The translations under genes and the position numbers were made by a program. Below are positions 4,083 through 22,302 of a DNA stretch of 31,565 nucleotides, piece by piece (the first letter of the stretch is position 1; each line of letters starts with the position of its first letter). The notes beneath the pieces are model-generated. The model was given only the letters and a program-made list of their open reading frames with translations, did no database searches and was not told the DNA's origin. This DNA comes from a virus, in the IMG/VR virus record IMGVR_UViG_3300045988_062277, one strand, 5' to 3'.

Positions 4083-5008
4083 TGAGGATTGTGGATATCA
4101 GCAATTGGAAGGCCGATTGCGACGTTTCCAAGATTGACGCCGATGGCGTCGTTGTCCAGTGCACTTGGGGCGCAGGCGAATGTTCGAACGATTATGGTCT
4201 GGTGAATTCCGTGTGGATTGGCGCGGATGCGAAGATTCAGGCAGCAGCAGCCCGTGGCATGGCGGTCGGATACATGCACTATATCCGTGGCGTGGGCGCT
4301 TCAGCGGAAGCGTATTTCTTCGCCGAACACACTAAGGGCTATCTGAAGAAGTTCGTTCCGGCCATTGACTGGGAGGCGGACGATAACGCCGCTTGGGGCA
4401 ACCGCGCCTATCTCGACGAATTCCTCTACCAGTACATTCGACTGACCGGAGTGAAGCCGCTCGTGTATGCTTCGCGTTCCGAAATCCCGTTCATCAAGGA
4501 TATCTGCGCCAAGCATGATTGCGGCATTTGGGAGGCGTGCTACGCGTCCATGGATGCGGTCGGCTGGCAGGACGCCAACTCGATTTGGTCGTATGTGGCG
4601 TATCCGATGCGACAGTACACTCCGAACGGTCATATCGGCGGCTACGCCGGTTCGCTTGATTTGAACTATTTCGCTGGTGATAAGACAGCTTGGGACAAGT
4701 ATGCCGGTGTGGGGGCGAACACTCCTGTGAACCCGGCTCCGGCCCCGGTGGTTTCTCCTTCTCCGACTGTGGTCCCCACCACGTATGAGGTGGTTGTCGA
4801 TGCGTTGAACGTGCGTACCGAACCGTCGTTGAATGGGCAGGTCGTGGCCTGTTACGGTCGCGGCGGTAAGGTCGTGTTGGATGGTTGGGGCGTTTATGCT
4901 GACGGCTTCCTGTGGGGTCGTTATGTCGGCGCTTCTTCGGGCCAGCTAAGGTATATCGCAATCGGCACTGAGTCCGGCAGCGACTGGTATTTGACAATGT
5001 GCCGTTAG
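4082..5008 (+). CDS. Endolysin: GH25 muramidase, Pro-rich linker and a C-terminal SH3b-like wall-binding domain
   Basis: N-terminus MRIVDISNWK...DGVVVQCTWG...YMHY...DWE...LDLNYF fits the GH25 pattern. The linker is NPAPAPVVSPSPTVVP. The C-terminus is VVVDALNVRTEPSLNGQVV...LWGRY. Confidence 0.85.
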   Translation: MRIVDISNWKADCDVSKIDADGVVVQCTWGAGECSNDYGLVNSVWIGADAKIQAAAARGMAVGYMHYIRGVGASAEAYFFAEHTKGYLKKFVPAIDWEADDNAAWGNRAYLDEFLYQYIRLTGVKPLVYASRSEIPFIKDICAKHDCGIWEACYASMDAVGWQDANSIWSYVAYPMRQYTPNGHIGGYAGSLDLNYFAGDKTAWDKYAGVGANTPVNPAPAPVVSPSPTVVPTTYEVVVDALNVRTEPSLNGQVVACYGRGGKVVLDGWGVYADGFLWGRYVGASSGQLRYIAIGTESGSDWYLTMCR

Positions 5009-9556: not shown

Positions 9557-9921
9557 TTCATTTTTCCTTCCGAATCGACGATGAGAATTTCGTGGTACGT
9601 GTTCGTCAGGTCAACCAGGTTCCTGTAGAGCAGGATGGTGTCGACGGCCTTCATGCCGTATAGGAGCATGACGTTCGCGTTGTGTTCGGCGAGCGTTTTG
9701 AGTTCGCGGCATTGGTCCGGGCTTGGCTTTCCCACCGTGCGCTTCAGTTCGATGAACCATACATTGCCGAGCGGGTCGACGGCGGTCACGTCGGGGAACC
9801 CGTTGCGTGAGCGTCCTTCCGTTTTCTGCACGTACCATCCTTGCTGTTCCAAGGTTCTGATAAGACGGTTTTGGATGGTTGATTCCAATGGTTCCGGCTT
9901 GTGGTCATTCAGTTTCGGCAT
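9538..9921 (-). CDS. VRR-NUC domain nuclease
   Basis: ESTIQNRLIRTLEQQGWYVQK...GFPDVTAV...WFIELKR...SPDQ is the canonical VRR-NUC PD-(D/E)XK pattern. Confidence 0.8.
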   Translation of the reverse strand: MPKLNDHKPEPLESTIQNRLIRTLEQQGWYVQKTEGRSRNGFPDVTAVDPLGNVWFIELKRTVGKPSPDQCRELKTLAEHNANVMLLYGMKAVDTILLYRNLVDLTNTYHEILIVDSEGKMKWTKKI

Positions 9922-10183
9922 TGGCGTTCTCCTTGATTCTTACCGCGCTGACCCATACCGTGTATGTGCCGTCCGGCTTTCGGCGTGCGACTGCGGCGTA
10001 GTCGACGTTTGGATCGGTCCATGAGGTGATGTGTTTGCGGATATGGTAGGCGGTGGCGTTCGCGGTGGTGCGTTTCTTGTATGAACGGTATTCAGCCCAT
10101 CGGCCTAGATTGCATTTAAGCATCGCATTGAATGCGGTGTCTACCCGGCTGTTGGCGGGGGGGGTGTCTAGGAATTCCCTCAT
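9905..10183 (-). CDS. Hypothetical protein
   Basis: An operon-embedded ORF with an ATGA overlap to the upstream gene. It contains a G8 run encoding Pro-Pro. Confidence 0.55.
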   Translation of the reverse strand: MREFLDTPPANSRVDTAFNAMLKCNLGRWAEYRSYKKRTTANATAYHIRKHITSWTDPNVDYAAVARRKPDGTYTVWVSAVRIKENANAETE

Positions 10184-10377
10184 TCGTTTTCCTTCGGTTT
10201 GAAATATGCGGGCATGATTGACTTCGGTATGATTTTGCCTTCGCGTTCCAACCGTTTCGCGCGGGGGAACAGCCAGCCGCGCGACACGTTGAGCGCACGC
10301 GCGGCTTGGTCGATGCTCAGGCAGGTGGTGAGTTCGTCAATCAGCGTGTCATCACTGTAGTTGATTGGCGCGTTCAT
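10180..10377 (-). CDS. Small helix-turn-helix DNA-binding protein
   Basis: LSIDQAARALNVSRGWLFPRAKRL is a typical HTH (excisionase/MerR-like small DNA binders). Confidence 0.6.
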   Translation of the reverse strand: MNAPINYSDDTLIDELTTCLSIDQAARALNVSRGWLFPRAKRLEREGKIIPKSIMPAYFKPKENE

Positions 10378-12208: not shown

Positions 12209-12751
12209 TCACAGTTCACTGAGAACGTACACTTTGCGCCATGCCGTCCCAACGCCGTCAATCGGGTTGCCGTCCCTGACGGCCTTGCGTAGCCACGACA
12301 GCGTGACGCCGTGGAACGTGTCGTCGGTCTGGGCGAGGAACTCCTTGACGTGCCTCAACGTGGTGGCGCTCAGGCATCCCATGCCGATTTCCACGGCGTA
12401 TGTCGTGATGTCTTCGTCGGAGTATGTCGGCGTGACCTTGGCGACGACCGTGCCATACGACTTGAGAACAAGCTGCGTGCCGTGTTCGGTGTCCCAGCGT
12501 TCGACGAACGCCTTGCCGTGGAAGGACTGGCGCGAGTCGTACAGCGGCTGCAATTCGAAGGTTCCAAGATAATCACTCATTTCAATCACTCCTTGTGGTT
12601 CGGTTGGTTGGTTTGGTTCAGGCGATGGGCTGGGGCATGCCGCCTCAGGCGTGAGCACGCCCTCGTGATGGTGGTAGAGGTCTCCGGTCGAGGTGAGGAA
12701 GTGGCCCTCCCCGCCTCGGATGTGGCCTTTGCCGCTGAGTCTCTTGTTCAT
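12209..12751 (-). CDS. Immediate-early protein A: a 35-aa paralogous N-module, a Pro-rich linker and a 123-aa C-domain. A strong internal start lies at 12580.
   Basis: MNKRLSGKGHIRGGEGHFLTSTGDLYHHHEGVLTP..., then an in-frame AAGGAG-N8-ATG (MSDYLGTFELQ...). It is driven by promoter P1. Confidence 0.6.
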   Translation of the reverse strand: MNKRLSGKGHIRGGEGHFLTSTGDLYHHHEGVLTPEAACPSPSPEPNQPTEPQGVIEMSDYLGTFELQPLYDSRQSFHGKAFVERWDTEHGTQLVLKSYGTVVAKVTPTYSDEDITTYAVEIGMGCLSATTLRHVKEFLAQTDDTFHGVTLSWLRKAVRDGNPIDGVGTAWRKVYVLSEL

Positions 12752-12778: not shown

Positions 12779-12820
12779 AATATACCGCACTTGGCGTTGG
12801 CCGTCAAGTGCGGCGTGTCG
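12779..12820 (-). promoter_or_regulatory. Promoter P1 with an overlapping palindromic operator
   Basis: On the minus strand: CGACACGCCG-cac-TTGACG-17nt-TATATT. The palindrome arms are 12785-12793 and 12805-12813 (ccgcacttg/caagtgcgg). Confidence 0.6.
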
Positions 12821-12823
12821 CGT

Positions 12824-12994
12824 TCAGATGGAGGCGGCCCGGACGCCCTCAAGTTCCGCATACGCCTTCGGATGGTTCGTGGTGGTCAGTGGCGTGAGCT
12901 CGCCCTCGTGGTAGGCGTAGACCTCCCCGGCCGTGGTGACGAACACCCCCTCGCCGTTCCTGATGTAGCCCTTGCCGTTCAGTGCCTTGTGCAT
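12824..12994 (-). CDS. Immediate-early protein B (56 aa), a paralog of the N-module of protein A
   Basis: MHKALNGKGYIRNGEGVFVTTAGEVYAYHEGELTP... shares 21 of 35 residues with protein A. It has a GGAGG RBS and is driven by P2. Confidence 0.55.
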   Translation of the reverse strand: MHKALNGKGYIRNGEGVFVTTAGEVYAYHEGELTPLTTTNHPKAYAELEGVRAASI

Positions 12995-13021
12995 TTCCCT
13001 CCTTGTTTGGTTGATGGTTCT

Positions 13022-13062
13022 AGTATACCGAACTTGACACCATGCGTCAAGTCGGCGTGTCG
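13022..13062 (-). promoter_or_regulatory. Promoter P2 with an overlapping palindromic operator
   Basis: On the minus strand: CGACACGCCG-ac-TTGACG-17nt-TATACT. The palindrome arms are 13029-13038 and 13046-13054 (cgaacttgac/gtcaagtcg). The leader is nearly identical to that of P1. Confidence 0.6.
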
Positions 13063-13094
13063 TGAGAACGGTTCTCAATAACAGGAGCGAGCGC

Positions 13095-13192
13095 GAACCC
13101 AGCCAACGCATGAACCCGGTCAATAGACGAACGCCGTTGACATGCGAACACGGTCAATGCGTGAACGCCGTCAACACATGAACGCCGTCAAC
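13095..13192. repeat. Array of six 13-bp iterons at exact 17-bp phasing
   Basis: GAACCCAGCCAAC (13095), GAACCCGGTCAAT (13112), GAACGCCGTTGAC (13129), GAACACGGTCAAT (13146), GAACGCCGTCAAC (13163), GAACGCCGTCAAC (13180). Confidence 0.85.
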
Positions 13193-13899
13193 ACACCAAC
13201 AAAACAAGAACGATCCCCAACAAAAGACAGGGAGAGCCACCACCACACAAGGGGGGGGAGCCCAAAAACGACACGAGCCGAGCCCCACCGCACGCCTTGC
13301 CGATTGCGTCGACGAGTGCGAACGGGTCAGAACACCCTCTAGAAGCCATTCTTTGGGGTCTTAGACGGGCTTTCATGCCGAACCCTAGTACTTTTACCTC
13401 CCAGCACCGAAAGGCCCTCAGAGACGCCTTTTTCGATTCCGACGTGACCTTTGCCGCAGCCATGGCGCGGACGCGTCGCCAGCTGGCCGCCGTCGGCTGG
13501 GTTCGGCCATGGCTTGGCTCGGCCATGGAAGGTCTTCGCGCGACGCTGCGGAGGCCGTTCGGCATCGAAAACCGGTGGATGGCGACCATGTGCGGATGGC
13601 GGCTCGTTTTTGCCTCCGGGACCATATGCGAGGGCCGTTCCTACAGCGTCATTCCAACGTTTTCGAGGTGTCGCGCCACCACTGCGGCCATGTCGGCGGC
13701 GGGTTGGCTTGACGGAAACGGCCAAATGGTGTGTTTGTGTCTTGGTTTTGGCTTGTTTCCAGCGCTGAGCCTGTGGATAACTCAAGTCAGTGGCAACAAA
13801 TTCTGTGATGGAATTGTGAACAAAACTTCAGATTCAGCGAAGACCACACAAAGTTCGGCACCCTCGACACGCCGTGTTTTGTCATACCCCATGGTGTAT

Positions 13900-14047
13900 C
13901 ACGCGCGCGCACGAGAATGACCCTCCCAAACCCCAATAGATGTAGTGTGTAGGTGTAGGTATATATGGTATGTTGTTGTTGTTGTTGTTGGTCTATATAG
14001 ATATAAGCGCGTGACGTGCGCGCGCGCGCGCGCGTATACACCCCCCC
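13900..14047. repeat. Low-complexity block: alternating purine-pyrimidine GC tracts flanking an AT-rich segment with a (TGT)6 microsatellite and a C7 run
   Basis: cacgcgcgcgcacg at 13900-13913; (TGT)6 at 13971-13990; a 28-nt alternating Pu-Py tract at 14014-14041 with a (GC)8 core; C7 at 14041-14047; A9 at 14074-14082. Confidence 0.85.
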
Positions 14048-14166
14048 GAGCATGGTTGTCAAGTCGTGTTCACATAAAAAGGCAAAAAAAAACCCTAGAA
14101 CACCCGGCTACGTTTTCCTACATCCTACGTTCCGTGCGGAAACCAACGATTTCCGACGCGCCGTAG

Positions 14167-14195
14167 TTGAAAACTCATAGCGGGTGTGCTAGGGT
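14167..14195 (+). promoter_or_regulatory. Candidate promoter of the replicase gene
   Basis: TTGAAA, a 17-nt spacer, then TAGGGT. A GGAG RBS lies at 14225-14228 before the ATG at 14235. Confidence 0.35.
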
Positions 14196-14234
14196 TGAAC
14201 TTGTCGAAAAACAACCTTACCACAGGAGAAACCC

Positions 14235-16490
14235 ATGAGTCACACATTCCGCAAGCCGCAGGACCCGCCAGCGCTCGACATCAGGCCATACCGGAACATT
14301 CCCAACGGCCTAGCCCGGGAAGTAAACGGCCTTACCACGGCCGCCCAGAACAGCGAACACACGTTCATCGACGCACGGCTCCAGACCGTCGCCATGCCCG
14401 TCATGGACGGCACAGGCAAGCCACGCTGGAACGACGCATACTACGACGCGTTCTGGTCTCTCCGAAACGGTGACCTGCGCCTCAGCGAAGACGGCGGCAC
14501 CATGTACGCCCGCGACACGAACTGGCTCGGCGGAGACATTCCCAACACGTGGCACCCCATCAGCAGCCTGTCCGAGGAATTCGGCTTCCCCACCGGAAGC
14601 CACGCCGTACGCAACCTCGAACCAATGTTCCGCGCCGAAACCCTCAAACTCCCCCGCCTCACGCGCGGAATGATGTTCGGCGACACCGCCTTCCACCCAC
14701 AAGGCAAACACAGCGTCGTGGCCGAAGACGCCGACAAAAACGGCGCATACCTGTACGTGGACAACAGCACATGGCTGTACGACAGCAAGAAAACCGCCAA
14801 AATCGTCGAAAAAGCCAACAAGTTCATCGCCCAGCTCACCGCCGACGACGCGAGCCGCGAAAACCTCCTCCGCATGTTCGCCACCCCATTCCTCGAACCG
14901 TACAAGCATCTCTTCTACGTGTTCTACGGGCACGGCGGCGACGGCAAAAGCTTCCTGCTCGGACGGCTGGGCGACACCTACCCGGACAAGGCCGGAGGCA
15001 TCGGCATCAAAGCCCTCAACTCGCCCAGCGTGTTCGAAAGCGGCAACGAGGCGTTGAAGCTCGACGGCCGCTATTGGGTGTACGACGAGGAAGGCGACAT
15101 GCTCACCGACAAGGACATGGGCATCATCAAACGCATCGCCACCGGCGACACCATCCACGCTCGCGGCGTCGGCCGCAACAGCGTCAACGTGCGCTCGCAG
15201 GCCACGCTCGTCATCGCAAGCAACCATCCGCTGGCAACCAGCAACGGCGACGCCAACATGCGCCGCCTCGTGCCCGTCATGTTCTCCGGCCGCAAAACCC
15301 CGCAGCAGATGCAGCCGTTGGCCGACTTCATCGACGAATACGGCATGACCCCGTTCATGCTCGCGAGCGCCATGCTCTGGGCCGACAAGCCGTTGGACGA
15401 CGACATCCATCGCGACATCAGCTTCAACGACAGCGAACGTGACCTGGACGAACGCGCCATGTGGATCGTCAACGAAATCTGCGAGAACGGCTTCGCCGAC
15501 ACACGCGCCTGCCCGTACATCGGCCACACGAGCGGCAACACGTACAAGATGCTCGGCGTCGGCCTACGCAACAAGCGCATCGACGGCAAAGTCTGCTCCG
15601 TTCGCATCGTCATCGACGAAGACCGATTCGCACCATACCGCGAACGCTACGAGAAGGAGCTGAACGAAACCCGCCTCCCCCTGCTCGAAGACCTGCCCGT
15701 GCCCGAAGCGCAGACCGACATGGAACGGCGTATCACCGAATGCGGCGAAATCGTCGACATCAAAGCGCCAGAAGGCTTCAAGCTCCACAAGGAGCCAACC
15801 GACCCGAACAATCCGAAAGCCGTCCGCAACTGGAAGAACGGCACGCAGGAAGACACGGTTGAAATCGGCCAAGGAGACGTGTACGCCGTCATCCCCCAGC
15901 CCGGCCACATCATCATCGACATGGACGCGCCCAAGGACGACCACAGCCGCCACGGATACAACATCCTCCGCCCCATGCTCGAACCCACCCGCATGGTGCA
16001 TACGCCCACCCACGGCGGCGTCCACGCCTACTACCGGCTCCCCGAAGGCTGGACCGGCAAGCTCAAGAACACCAACCACGCCGACGGCATCCCCGTGGAC
16101 GTGAAAGTCGATGGACGCGGATACGTGCTCGGCGCCGGTTCCAACATCGACGGCATCGGCTTCTACCAGCTGGTAGGCGACGAGACCGACGTGCAGGAAG
16201 CGCCAATCGAACTGCTCAACTGGCTCGTCGAACACGGATACGGTGTCAAACCCATGCCGAAACCAGCCAAAGTCATGCCCGGCGCGCCGCGCAACGGACG
16301 CCCGGACCTCACGCCAGTGCCCGAAGGACGCAGAAACGACACGCTCTACAGGTGGGCTTGGGGACGACTCCACAACCATGAAGACAACGAAACCAACATC
16401 CACGACGAACTCGTACTCCGTGGCCACATCAGCGGCCTTGGAGACGCCGAAATCGAACGCATCTGGCAGAGCGTGAAGGAAACCGCGTGA
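14235..16490 (+). CDS. Replicase: a D5_N-like region and P4/D5-type SF3 helicase, followed by a PrimPol (AEP) domain and a PriCT-1 domain (permuted order)
   Basis: Walker A is YGHGGDGKS, Walker B is WVYDEEGD and motif C is LVIASNHP. The AEP motifs are IIIDMDAP, THGGVHAYY and VDVKVDGRGYVLGAGS. PriCT is PEGRRNDTLYRWAWGRL. Confidence 0.85.
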   Translation: MSHTFRKPQDPPALDIRPYRNIPNGLAREVNGLTTAAQNSEHTFIDARLQTVAMPVMDGTGKPRWNDAYYDAFWSLRNGDLRLSEDGGTMYARDTNWLGGDIPNTWHPISSLSEEFGFPTGSHAVRNLEPMFRAETLKLPRLTRGMMFGDTAFHPQGKHSVVAEDADKNGAYLYVDNSTWLYDSKKTAKIVEKANKFIAQLTADDASRENLLRMFATPFLEPYKHLFYVFYGHGGDGKSFLLGRLGDTYPDKAGGIGIKALNSPSVFESGNEALKLDGRYWVYDEEGDMLTDKDMGIIKRIATGDTIHARGVGRNSVNVRSQATLVIASNHPLATSNGDANMRRLVPVMFSGRKTPQQMQPLADFIDEYGMTPFMLASAMLWADKPLDDDIHRDISFNDSERDLDERAMWIVNEICENGFADTRACPYIGHTSGNTYKMLGVGLRNKRIDGKVCSVRIVIDEDRFAPYRERYEKELNETRLPLLEDLPVPEAQTDMERRITECGEIVDIKAPEGFKLHKEPTDPNNPKAVRNWKNGTQEDTVEIGQGDVYAVIPQPGHIIIDMDAPKDDHSRHGYNILRPMLEPTRMVHTPTHGGVHAYYRLPEGWTGKLKNTNHADGIPVDVKVDGRGYVLGAGSNIDGIGFYQLVGDETDVQEAPIELLNWLVEHGYGVKPMPKPAKVMPGAPRNGRPDLTPVPEGRRNDTLYRWAWGRLHNHEDNETNIHDELVLRGHISGLGDAEIERIWQSVKETA

Positions 16491-19989: not shown

Positions 19990-20852
19990 CACTCACCATC
20001 GTGGACGAACAGGCAATCTCATTCCCATGGATTGAACTCGTCAAGAACGCATACTCCATGCGCGTGCGGGTCACCAATTTCAGCGCGGTCGGCAAACGCA
20101 GCTTCACCCGCATCCTTTCCAAAGCGGTCGGCGGAGCCAACTCCTACTTCCTCATGCAGGACGGAGACCCACTCAGCACCGACTACCTCCCCTCCGAAGA
20201 CCTGCAACTGGAAAAGGTCTCCGCAGTGGGCTTGGACGGACGTTGCTACGACGAGAACGCCAACGAAATAAACGAAAACCTCCGATGCCTTACCCTCAGC
20301 CACGCGCCGGTCACCGACCAAGCCGTACTGTTGGCGCAGCGCGCCATGGTCATCGAAGGACTCATCTCCCAGAACCTCGAACACCTCATGCTGCCCGAAC
20401 CGGTCGTGGTCGGCACGTCGCCCGATGTGGTAATCAAAACCGACCCGAGCAAGAGCGCGTCCGATTGGACGAAATTCGACGCCAACGACGACCACGACAC
20501 CATCGTCCGGCCCGAAGTCAAACGACTTAGCCAGTGGGATAACGGACAGCTCAAAACCCTCCTGCAAAACACGGCGCTGAGCTTCCAAATGGAAACCGGG
20601 CTCCCCCCGCAGGACGCGCAGGTTCTCGACACGCTCGGCGCGACAACCCAATCGTTGGTGTCGAACCGTGAAAGCTTCGTCAGCCGCATCTACACCATCA
20701 AACAGGATTTGAACGCCGTGTTCGAATCATTGGACATCACATTGGATTACGAACTCACATTCCCGCAAACCGCGCAAGACATCGCATCCATCGGCGACGC
20801 CTATGGCAAGGGCGCCAACGCCGACATCCTCAAGAAGTATCAGGTGGTGTGA
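19986..20852 (+). CDS. Putative portal protein (unusually short, 288 aa)
   Basis: It is the only unassigned ORF of suitable size near TerL and MuF. The assignment is weak. Confidence 0.35.
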   Translation: MTLTIVDEQAISFPWIELVKNAYSMRVRVTNFSAVGKRSFTRILSKAVGGANSYFLMQDGDPLSTDYLPSEDLQLEKVSAVGLDGRCYDENANEINENLRCLTLSHAPVTDQAVLLAQRAMVIEGLISQNLEHLMLPEPVVVGTSPDVVIKTDPSKSASDWTKFDANDDHDTIVRPEVKRLSQWDNGQLKTLLQNTALSFQMETGLPPQDAQVLDTLGATTQSLVSNRESFVSRIYTIKQDLNAVFESLDITLDYELTFPQTAQDIASIGDAYGKGANADILKKYQVV

Positions 20853-20853
20853 C

Positions 20854-22302
20854 ATGCTGGTAAAGAATCCGAATTGGAGGGCGAACGTCCGCCCAACGTC
20901 CGACGTGGCAATCATGGCTGCGGAATACGTGAACTGGGGTCGTGGTAACACAATCCTCCCATTTCAGGTCGAGTTCCTGAACAACGCCTTCCAACGCAAG
21001 AAGGACGGCACTTGGAAATACAAGCGCGTCGCATTGAACATGCCGCGTCAGAACGGCAAGACCAAAATCCTCACCGCCCCAATCCTCTACTACCTGTTCG
21101 TGCTCGGCCTGAACGTGCTCGTCACCGCGCACGAGCAGATTGCCGCCAACAAAATCATGGAAGACCTGAAGGACGCCATCGATTCCCACCCAGAACTGAA
21201 ATTCGAAGTCACGCACTTCAGCACCACCATGGGACGCGAGCGCCTACAGTTGAGGAACGGCGCGTTCGTCCGGTTCCGCTCACGTAAGAGCGCTTCCGCA
21301 GGTATGGGCGGCACGTTCGATTTGGTTATCTTCGACGAGGCTCAGGAACTCCGTTCAGAATATGAGGCGATGATTACCAAGACGCTGAAGACGCGCCGCA
21401 TGGCGATGATAATCTACACGGGCACGCCGTTCCTCCCATCGTCCATCGGTGACACGTTCAACGTGTTCCTTGACAACGCGGAAAACGACGACATGGCGTA
21501 TGCGGTGCGCTACGGCATCGACGACGAGACGGCGGATATCGAGGACGAGCAGTTGTGGGCGCTCACCAACCCGCTCTACCCGGACGTGATCCCACGCGAA
21601 GCGTTCCTCACCGACGTGGCGATAGCCAAACAGGGCGGCGCTGACGGACTCATCGATTTTCGCATCCAAGACTTGGGCCTATGGTGGGCGGACAGCATCC
21701 CTCCTGCAATCCCGATGGACTTGTGGGACAGCGCCTACTCCGACCTGCAACATGACCGTGACACGCTCGTCTACGCGCTCACCTTCGACCCGGCCACGAG
21801 CACACTCGCCTTGTCCGTCGCAGCCAGCACCGAAGAGGTGACGGTCGGCTCGCAGCATTACGACAAGTGGGCGTACATCATCGGTGAAATCGTGGACGAG
21901 CGTCCCACCGCCGAATCATGGCAGTGGGTTTCGGACGAGCTGAAGACACGACCACGCAAGACCACGCTCATCTTGGATGCTGGCGGGTTGAACAATCCGA
22001 TAAGGGACATGCTGCCACGCGGATTGAACGTCATCCAATTGAGCGGCACGGAATTCCTCGCCTCCCAGCAGGGATTCCTTGACCTGCTGGAAGAGGGCCG
22101 TTTCAAGCATACGAACAACCCTCAGTTGACCGCCGAAGTGCAGAACGCGCAGAAGCTCAAATCCGGTTCGAACGACCAATGGAAGTTCGCGCCGATACGC
22201 AAGACCGAAACCACGGCCGGGTTGAAGGGCGTCAGCATCGCCGCATGGTATCGTGGCGTCAACCGTCCGAAGGAACGTCAGGTCAGGGAGGTGATTGCCT
22301 GA
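20854..22302 (+). CDS. terL: Terminase large subunit
   Basis: Walker A is MPRQNGKTK and Walker B is DLVIFDEAQ, with a C-terminal nuclease-like half. The ATG at 20854 follows the upstream TGA. Confidence 0.85.
   Translation: MLVKNPNWRANVRPTSDVAIMAAEYVNWGRGNTILPFQVEFLNNAFQRKKDGTWKYKRVALNMPRQNGKTKILTAPILYYLFVLGLNVLVTAHEQIAANKIMEDLKDAIDSHPELKFEVTHFSTTMGRERLQLRNGAFVRFRSRKSASAGMGGTFDLVIFDEAQELRSEYEAMITKTLKTRRMAMIIYTGTPFLPSSIGDTFNVFLDNAENDDMAYAVRYGIDDETADIEDEQLWALTNPLYPDVIPREAFLTDVAIAKQGGADGLIDFRIQDLGLWWADSIPPAIPMDLWDSAYSDLQHDRDTLVYALTFDPATSTLALSVAASTEEVTVGSQHYDKWAYIIGEIVDERPTAESWQWVSDELKTRPRKTTLILDAGGLNNPIRDMLPRGLNVIQLSGTEFLASQQGFLDLLEEGRFKHTNNPQLTAEVQNAQKLKSGSNDQWKFAPIRKTETTAGLKGVSIAAWYRGVNRPKERQVREVIA

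Follow-up and report, generated by a model that had tools for sequence, protein, structure and literature searches.

The only large intergenic region of the phage genome analysed here contains a short array of direct repeats with a period of exactly 17 bp, and the question that this locus raises is whether the array serves transcription, replication, partition or packaging, or has no binding function at all. The analysed stretch of DNA, which we refer to as the window (31,565 nucleotides), is, judged by its sequence, a Bifidobacterium siphovirus in the form of a circular contig of about 31.5 kb: the comparison of its ends has shown that the first and last 55 bases are identical, which corresponds to a circular genome of 31,510 bp. 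In DNA and protein searches, the nearest isolates are BP742P1, BP677P1-P8, BA746P1 and BA720P3, with 77-89% nucleotide identity over the array region; the clade also includes many contigs from human-gut metagenomes. It is only in recent years that lytic Bifidobacterium phages have been isolated, and the literature that could be searched offers no information on how they regulate their genes or replicate; nothing relevant on these phages or on the array has been found in it.

The array is situated between two operons, in the intergenic region of 1.24 kb at positions 12995-14234. The leftward operon, which runs from position 12994 down to about 4500, encodes small proteins, an Erf annealase, a gp2.5-like SSB, a VRR-NUC nuclease, a RecE-like exonuclease, a helicase and a dCTP deaminase, while the rightward operon begins with the replicase gene (14235-16490), followed by the head, terminase (TerL and HNH), tail and lysis genes. 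Among the genes of the window, we have found neither an integrase nor a repressor, and neither ParA nor ParB; without an integrase or a repressor, the phage looks lytic, with no sign of a stable prophage.

Structure of the array and its repeat unit

The array consists of six 17-bp direct repeats, arranged head to tail on the plus strand at positions 13093-13194, with the 17-mers starting at 13093, 13110, 13127, 13144, 13161 and 13178. The 13-mer cores of the units start at 13095, 13112, 13129, 13146, 13163 and 13180, at a spacing of exactly 17 bp, and read, in order, GAACCCAGCCAAC, GAACCCGGTCAAT, GAACGCCGTTGAC, GAACACGGTCAAT, GAACGCCGTCAAC and GAACGCCGTCAAC. The original prediction had described six units in exact 17-bp phasing, the last two copies being identical, and both statements are confirmed, for all six starts and for units 5 and 6, respectively. 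A decayed seventh unit, ACCAACAAAACAAGAAC, is located to the right of the array, within positions 13195-13218 of the plus strand.

The periodicity stands out from the rest of the genome: the self-match of the array at lag 17 (58 of 85 positions) is the genome-wide maximum for any lag from 5 to 39 across the 31.5 kb, and exceeds a first-order Markov null (41.4 +/- 1.3; 45 in the highest of 200 simulations) by about 13 standard deviations. On the plus strand, the motif GAACNNNGTYRAY has exactly five matches in the genome, all of them within the array, and on the minus strand it has one, at 9610. The array is genuine and non-random.

The logo of 179 units from 19 genomes reads R-T-G-A-A-C-n-n-n-G-T-T-A-A-Y-R-n: 11-12 positions are constrained per unit and four are free, with positions 2, 4-6, 10-11 and 13-14 being near-invariant and any base being accepted at positions 7-9 and 17. 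Each unit is made of two direct pentamer half-sites, TGAAC and TTAAY, which are spaced alternately 9 and 8 bp apart, and the six units amount to 12 direct half-sites, one every 8-9 bp. The hexamer GTTAAC, which is the unit core in most relatives, occurs nowhere in the genome of the window, whose own units carry GTCAAC, GTTGAC or GTCAAT.

Promoters and palindromes around the array

The leftward early promoter, TTGACG-17-TATACT (13022-13050, minus strand), drives a gene for a 56-aa protein (12994-12824) and the recombination/replication operon. Counted from the -35 hexamer of this promoter, the array extends from 45 to 145 bp upstream, as the original prediction had placed it (45 bp upstream of the promoter that it called P2), and does not overlap the core promoter; repression by simple occlusion is not possible, because the array starts 45 bp beyond the -35 hexamer. 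A second leftward promoter, TTGACG-17-TATATT (12779-12807, minus strand), is a duplicate of the first with the same 5' leader, without palindrome and array. An operator-like inverted repeat, ACTTGAC-N7-GTCAAGT, can be read from the sequence at 13032-13052, where it overlaps the -35 hexamer.

Between the leftward promoter and the array we have found a perfect 13-bp palindrome, GAGAACGGTTCTC (13064-13076; 13 bp upstream of the -35 hexamer), which did not figure in the original prediction; this is its sole exact copy in the genome, and it is conserved in most relatives. The palindrome is a probable operator for a dimeric regulator, and it marks the left boundary of the repeat cassette. The palindrome and the promoter together form a module that consists of GAGAACGGTTCTC, 12 nt, the -35 hexamer, 17 nt and the -10 hexamer (TTGACG-17-TATAnT), and the array abuts this module. 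To the right of the array, a decayed remnant of the palindrome, AAGAACGATCCCC (13206-13218, plus strand), can be recognised by comparison by eye with L004, L005 and L015, and several relatives have an intact second copy of GAGAACGGTTCTC at that side. In L016, the array is followed by a mirror-image rightward module, with the second palindrome copy and TTGACG-18-TATAAT (11/12 match), that drives an extra gene of 108 aa ending in a strong terminator; the arrangement is similar in L008, L011, L020, L022, L023 and L152. In relatives of the L016 type, the array therefore lies between back-to-back promoters, so that tandem direct repeats in a control region of divergent promoters are present in L016 and in at least five other relatives. 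Besides being palindromic, these copies repeat one another directly, and therefore offer a simple recombination route to the expansion, contraction and deletion of the array.

The promoters and the units had been linked in the original prediction by a common core, in that each unit was said to contain the TTGACG of the -35 hexamer and operator half-site. This applies to the consensus and to units 5 and 6 (CGTCAA), and it does not apply to units 1-4: the core of unit 3 is inverted (GTTGAC, plus strand), and units 1, 2 and 4 have GCCAAC or GTCAAT. The sharing is thus confined to two of the six units, and in the relatives the units carry GTTAAC while their -35 hexamer stays TTGACG; TTGACG/CGTCAA occurs 44 times genome-wide. 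We regard the link as a coincidence of the unit variant of the window's strain.

Several other identities have been considered for the array and have been set aside. A promoter inside the array is not supported, since the TTGACA of unit 3 is without a -10 hexamer at the right distance, and no suitably spaced -10-like hexamer occurs in the array. A cluster of restriction sites does not fit either, the core GTYRAC (HincII/HpaI-like) not being avoided elsewhere (44 found against about 29 expected). LexA (Cheo) boxes, DnaA boxes and response-regulator repeats of the PHO-box type, compared by eye, are a misfit in both spacing and sequence. Coding potential is rejected because conservation is lacking in the open reading frames 13142-13342 and 13297-13920, with the central part of the region replaced in relatives, and because the length of the array shifts in steps of 17 bp, which are not multiples of 3. 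As for an RNA element, there is no Rfam match in 12900-14300.

Conservation and copy number of the array in relatives

About 40 resolved loci, drawn from GenBank isolates, IMG/VR and ENA/Logan metagenomes and in part redundant between these collections, keep the array at the same place, in the same orientation and in the same 17-bp phase. The phasing is held in both of the GenBank isolates that were read, in 16 of the 18 IMG/VR contigs with enough flanking sequence and in further ENA/Logan contigs; in the relatives, the array is found just past the first leftward promoter, at a distance of 1.1-1.5 kb upstream from the replicase gene. Close relatives in which the array is absent or randomly degraded, by which the original prediction could have been refuted, are thus not the rule: all but one of the resolved loci retain it. 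The alignment of relatives that had been proposed as a check has found the phasing to be conserved and the repeat number to vary: in nearly all relatives, it ranges from 3 (L020) to about 18, the commonest numbers being 6-9, with 14-18 units in L013, L015, L006 and L018, and in one relative there are none.

The variation reaches down to near-identical strains: those that match the window almost exactly in the flanks and in the first three units have 8 or 9 units, compared to the 6 of the window, so that 6, 8 or 9 units occur between identical flanks. Higher-order repeats of 34, 51 and 153 bp are also present; in BP742P1, a higher-order unit of 153 bp, which comprises the palindrome and six units, is repeated in tandem at least two to three times, and in the record of this isolate (OP172705; L001 3236-3710) a run of N lies inside the tandemly duplicated 153-bp block. 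The relative in which the array is absent is L014 (30.8 kb), where the palindrome directly abuts the next conserved block although none of the neighbouring genes is missing; for this one contig, an assembly collapse is possible. We have found no gene that is lost together with the array in L014, and no second contig without the array among the relatives. In L152 (2480-2640), L170 and L171, most units are replaced by 14-bp units, CCCCCTAATGGATA, that keep the canonical TAATGRAT part; the left palindrome of these three differs too.

Outside the phages, a scan of 596 Gb of cellular genomes for GAACNNNGTYRAY repeated at 17 bp has returned 79 loci, mostly with single matches, which is roughly the chance expectation by our own estimate. 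The same array has not been found in these genomes, the scan having yielded only a few unrelated 17-bp arrays, one of which is an Acidimicrobiales array between kdpD and kdpE. Arrays of 8-15 copies at 17 bp that fit GAACNNNGTYRAY occur in L065 (1-260), L090 (5570-5690) and L049 (460-580), which are unrelated bacterial contigs from Deferribacteraceae, Xanthobacteraceae and a betaproteobacterium, respectively; given how many 17-bp arrays occur in 596 Gb, they probably fit by chance.

An array that changes so readily could be a neutral minisatellite, made and homogenised by slippage and unequal recombination and without any binding function. The shifts in copy number between near-identical strains and the higher-order repeats are in line with this explanation, as are the one relative without an array, the unrelated 17-bp arrays that arise by chance in bacterial genomes and fit the loose motif, and the three perfect heptamer arrays, each of a different sequence, that the sister lineage L117 has in this region (see below). 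The pattern of substitution within the units is not: in 160 units from 16 arrays, 47% of the deviations from each array's majority base fall at positions 7-9 and 17, where 24% would be expected (chi-square p = 7e-56); in 16 of 16 arrays, which include many divergent units, it is these four positions that are free and the same eleven to twelve that are fixed, for which concerted evolution alone is insufficient. Neutral minisatellite drift predicts no such pattern, and the position-specific constraint therefore fits an array of protein-binding "iterons". Furthermore, the DNA that surrounds the array is just 70-84% identical across the clade, and the array is kept in all but one of the resolved loci. 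We consider the neutral explanation very improbable.

The right flank of the array and the breaks in assemblies

The array is followed by a T-poor stretch (13193-13296, plus strand) of 104 nt with a single T, the genome-wide minimum (the mean being 20.5 per 100 nt), which is T-poor in relatives too and which contains a run of eight G at 13251-13258. A non-coding block at 13255-13445 is 77-87% conserved in the close relatives that cover it and holds long invariant stretches, including CACCGCACGCCTTGCC and AGCCATTCTTTGGGG, as well as a terminator-like hairpin at 13409-13435. RNAalifold has found no compensatory pairs in this block in 16 genomes; without an Rfam match or covariation, its conservation is therefore at the level of primary sequence.

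Most of the clade assemblies of 30-33 kb (L121-L154, L174-L181) break within 12995-14234, at the array, at the G-run or at a poly-A/(GC)n tract, and more than 25 independent contigs of this size end at about 13247-13334, inside the array, or in the second non-coding block. Such ends might mark a cosB- or pac-like site that the terminase recognises, cutting just to the right of the array. In its favour, several GenBank records in addition to the more than 25 contigs have an end no more than about 80 bp rightward of the array, or at another place in the region, and the TerL and HNH endonuclease pair is typical of cos packaging. The ends scatter, however, around the G8/C-run and the edge of the hypervariable zone, as assembly breaks do; the window and many IMG/VR contigs continue across this place without a break; and the terminase genes are located 7.6 kb away (TerL at 20803-22302). 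A terminase site is, in our view, extremely improbable. The contig ends are probably not physical genome termini, being ragged and without a single common nucleotide; since they coincide with the G8/C-run and the edge of the hypervariable zone, we read them as assembly breaks. The array region explains the frequent breaks and gaps in the assemblies of these phages.

Replication and the origin-like element next to the replicase gene

The original prediction had offered, as its first possibility, that the array is an iteron array of a replication origin. The duplex stability of the array and its flanks, at -75 to -76 kcal per 50 bp, is average for the genome, which has a mean of -75.7 and a standard deviation of 4.4, and no easily melted DNA has been found within about 750 bp of it. 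Some 760 bp rightward of the array, at 13956-14005, are the least stable 50 bp of the genome (-56.4 kcal), inside an origin-like element (13900-14200) that lies directly upstream of the replicase gene. The element is built of nested inverted repeats: CGCGCGCGCACG at 13902 is 100% complementary to CGTGCGCGCGCG at 14015, (TGTAGG)3 at 13942-13953 faces (CCTACA)2 at 14117-14128, and AACCCTAGAACACCCG at 14091 faces its complement at 14181; runs of (TGT)6 and (GC)8 are also present. In L117, whose replicase is 44% identical and from which the 17-bp array is absent, the same architecture is formed by other repeat words, TTCTATAAC and GTTATAGAA, around (TTG)6 and a GC run. The motif of the array does not recur in the origin-like element of the relatives. 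On account of its least stable DNA, its opposed repeats and the architecture that is kept in L117, 13900-14200 appears to be a better origin candidate than the array. GC skew mostly follows gene orientation and composition, and is uninformative as an origin marker.

The replicase (751 aa; 14235-16490, plus strand) contains an SF3/D5-like helicase domain (DUF5906, residues 230-344) and a C-terminal Prim-Pol domain (525-657), an order that is the reverse of the usual primase-then-helicase; residues 1-190 and 360-520 are uncharacterised and could hold an origin-binding domain. The statement of the original prediction that neither an initiator nor a ParB is recognisable holds for ParB, and is too strong for the initiator, for which this SF3-helicase/Prim-Pol protein is a plausible candidate.

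The array could still act in replication as a loading or enhancer site for the replicase, looping to the distant unwinding element, or by titration or handcuffing. It lies in the sole large intergenic region, 1.04 kb upstream of the replicase gene (with two other conserved non-coding blocks in between), and tandem direct repeats with a constrained motif, such as it has, are a classical origin signature. The replicase (88-93% identical) and the unit consensus are both conserved across the clade, and distant relatives of the replicase (35-44% identity) bear other, lineage-specific repeats at this place, as would be expected if these co-evolved with the initiator. Set against these points, an AT-rich unwinding element next to the array is lacking; it is the separate element, and not the 17-bp array, whose architecture is kept in the 44%-identity relative, and the array motif is not repeated there in relatives; L014 has all the neighbouring genes without the array, and other relatives have just 3-4 units; and plasmid Rep iterons are spaced by roughly 22 bp and lie on the same face of the helix, unlike a 17-bp pitch. 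We regard replication iterons as unlikely, though as the main rival of the explanation that we prefer; the array itself is probably not the replication origin, and would be at most an auxiliary replication element. With no unwinding element beside it, one relative without it and a more origin-like element beside the replicase gene, the origin that had been proposed for the array lacks specific support.

The equivalent slot in the sister lineage and partition

L117 (2275-4958; NCBI MAG contig DAIMZP010000002.1) has nine parS-like sites, TGTTTCACGTGAAACA with at most 2 mismatches, within 14 kb, and four of them occupy the intergenic slot of the window's palindrome and array. No parS-like site has been found in 865 kb of the other phage loci examined, and no ParB-like gene has been found near those of L117, which may represent the recruitment of a host ParB by the phage. 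At 4831-4940, between the parS-like palindromes, L117 has (CACTAGC)6, (CGTCGCG)4 and (CGCACCC)4 consecutively, all of them perfect heptamer arrays.

By analogy, the array of the window could be a centromere-like or host-factor loading site that recruits a partition or chromosome-organising protein, encoded by the host or by the phage, for example in a carrier or episomal state. Its 12 direct half-sites, one every 8-9 bp, form an array of short repeats that resembles actinophage centromeres (PMC7157519), and the equivalent position in L117 is held by near-consensus chromosomal parS palindromes. The cognate proteins are lacking, though: those ORFs that were searched against Pfam and PHROGs have given no match to ParA, ParB, ParR or ParM, and there is no deviant Walker A ATPase, the only match to G..G.GK[ST]/KGG.GK[ST] being in the replicase. 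The unit motif is not parS, no parS-like site occurs in the window or in close relatives, and a phage with neither integrase nor repressor gives no indication of a stable prophage. We give the centromere-like option of the original prediction, for which no ParA/ParB/ParR gene has been detected, very little credence. With the parS-like sites in the equivalent slot of L117, it is conceivable that the slot generally recruits host DNA-organising proteins to phage DNA.

Candidate binding proteins

A 65-aa protein encoded in the leftward operon (10180-10377, minus strand), which the original prediction had named as an HTH protein, is indeed modelled as a three-helix, HTH-like domain (pLDDT 72), and the top PDB matches of the model are all HTH domains, of LysR, Lrp, MarR and NarL regulators, at weak Foldseek E-values (0.3-1). 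This protein is a candidate binder of the palindrome, the array or both; the replicase is another candidate for the array. No match to the RHH or Xis families has been found.

The 56-aa product of the promoter-proximal gene is rejected as the binder, its model showing no DNA-binding fold and the protein belonging to a family that is confined to the clade (112 clusters, with the N-terminal 35 residues almost invariant). Its AF2 model is a four-stranded beta-meander with a helix (pLDDT 76), with no PDB match at E < 0.1 and no DNA-binding relatives. The protein (12824-12994, minus strand) and the N-terminus of the product of the next ORF (12209-12751, minus strand) are paralogues, which share GKGxIRxGEGxFxTxxGxxYxxHEGxLTP; each follows a copy of the duplicated promoter and leader, and the predicted fold resembles one propeller blade.

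A proposed protein platform upstream of the early promoter

The explanation that we tentatively prefer, at somewhat less than even confidence, is that the array is a nucleoprotein platform upstream of the early promoter or promoters. The array would consist of tandem sites for one sequence-specific DNA-binding protein, with two direct half-sites per unit; the protein would polymerise head to tail and wind around about 100 bp in the window, and up to about 300 bp in relatives. The resulting filament would modulate early transcription, by shutting off or activating the divergent promoters, or as a place where a regulator is loaded or titrated, in a region that would not be the one where the replication origin melts. 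Recombination between the bounding palindromes would expand, contract or delete the array, leading to fast change of copy number among strains. Of the options that the original prediction had offered, a regulator-loading or titration site fits best. The spacing of 17 (8.5) bp, a non-integral number of helical turns, resembles the winding arrays that are bound by omega, MetJ and regulators of the Xis/Cox type. The array itself, its conservation, the constraint on its positions, its variable copy number and its place by the promoter are read directly from the genomes; from them we infer the binding of a protein, the candidates for that role and the consequence for transcription.

Several points weigh against a platform, among them the weak E-values of the HTH matches, the beta-meander model of the promoter-proximal protein and the lack of overlap between the array and the core promoter. 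In addition, the motif is not found at other promoters, though a general regulator would be expected to have further sites; the steps of 17 bp alter both the distance and the helical phase from one flanking module to the other, which speaks against any precise role as an architectural element; and the array shares its 1.24-kb region with what is very probably the origin, where sequence cannot separate a role in replication from one in transcription.

A further reading, which we hold to be quite improbable, goes beyond the platform: the array could be a recombination-tunable cassette, in which unequal exchange between the operator copies sets the number of sites (from 0 to more than 18) and, with it, a strain-heritable loading or titration of a regulator or a hijacked chromosome-organising protein of the host and the timing of the early genes. 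If this were true, strains in one population would differ heritably in early-gene timing.

The analysis maps the control region of a widespread gut clade, with two duplicated early promoters, a palindromic operator, an array of variable copy number and a separate origin-like element. To a specialist, this would be unsurprising unless the binder proves to be a host protein.

Comparison with known systems

Direct repeats in a control region of divergent early promoters are known from the Cox boxes of P2 and the Apl sites of 186, where six to seven of them lie between the divergent early promoters and are bound by a small (winged-)helix protein that polymerises. The array of the window shares this setting; unlike it, the Cox and Apl sites, which are found in temperate phages, have a pitch of about one helical turn and overlap the promoters, and their binders are also excisionases, whereas here the spacing is 17 (8.5) bp, the array is upstream of the core promoter and the phage looks lytic. 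The heptads of pSM19035 that are bound by omega and the parC of R1 are likewise many short direct repeats of variable copy number, with a non-integral or one-turn pitch, which are bound cooperatively in a filament that winds at a promoter. Their RHH-dimer binders, in contrast, are encoded adjacently, and their sites double as centromeres with an ATPase, neither of which has been found in the window.

The layout also recalls the ori and crr of P4 and the SaPIs, in which a primase/SF3-helicase replicase is encoded beside a non-coding region with reiterated motifs. In P4, the alpha primase-helicase binds the iterons of ori and crr, and the second cluster (crr) acts at a distance; the same octamer, however, occurs in both, while the motif of the window's array is not that of the repeats around the unwinding element. 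It is 13900-14200, and not the array, that matches the SaPI-like layout of two opposed repeat sets flanking AT-rich DNA.

Among actinobacteriophages, the mycobacteriophage RedRock has parS-L and parS-R, with eight direct copies of an 8-bp motif, a pitch near the 8-9 bp spacing of the window's half-sites; unlike the phage of the window, which has neither gene, RedRock encodes adjacent ParA and ParB and is an extrachromosomal prophage (PMC7157519). The phages of Brevibacterium aurantiacum have tandem-repeat regions (De Melo et al. 2020, as cited in PMC8002715), to which, by that citation alone, the array can be likened as non-coding tandem repeats of actinobacteriophages whose copy number varies between isolates. 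The array is an element of a familiar type, in a phage group that is itself unstudied.
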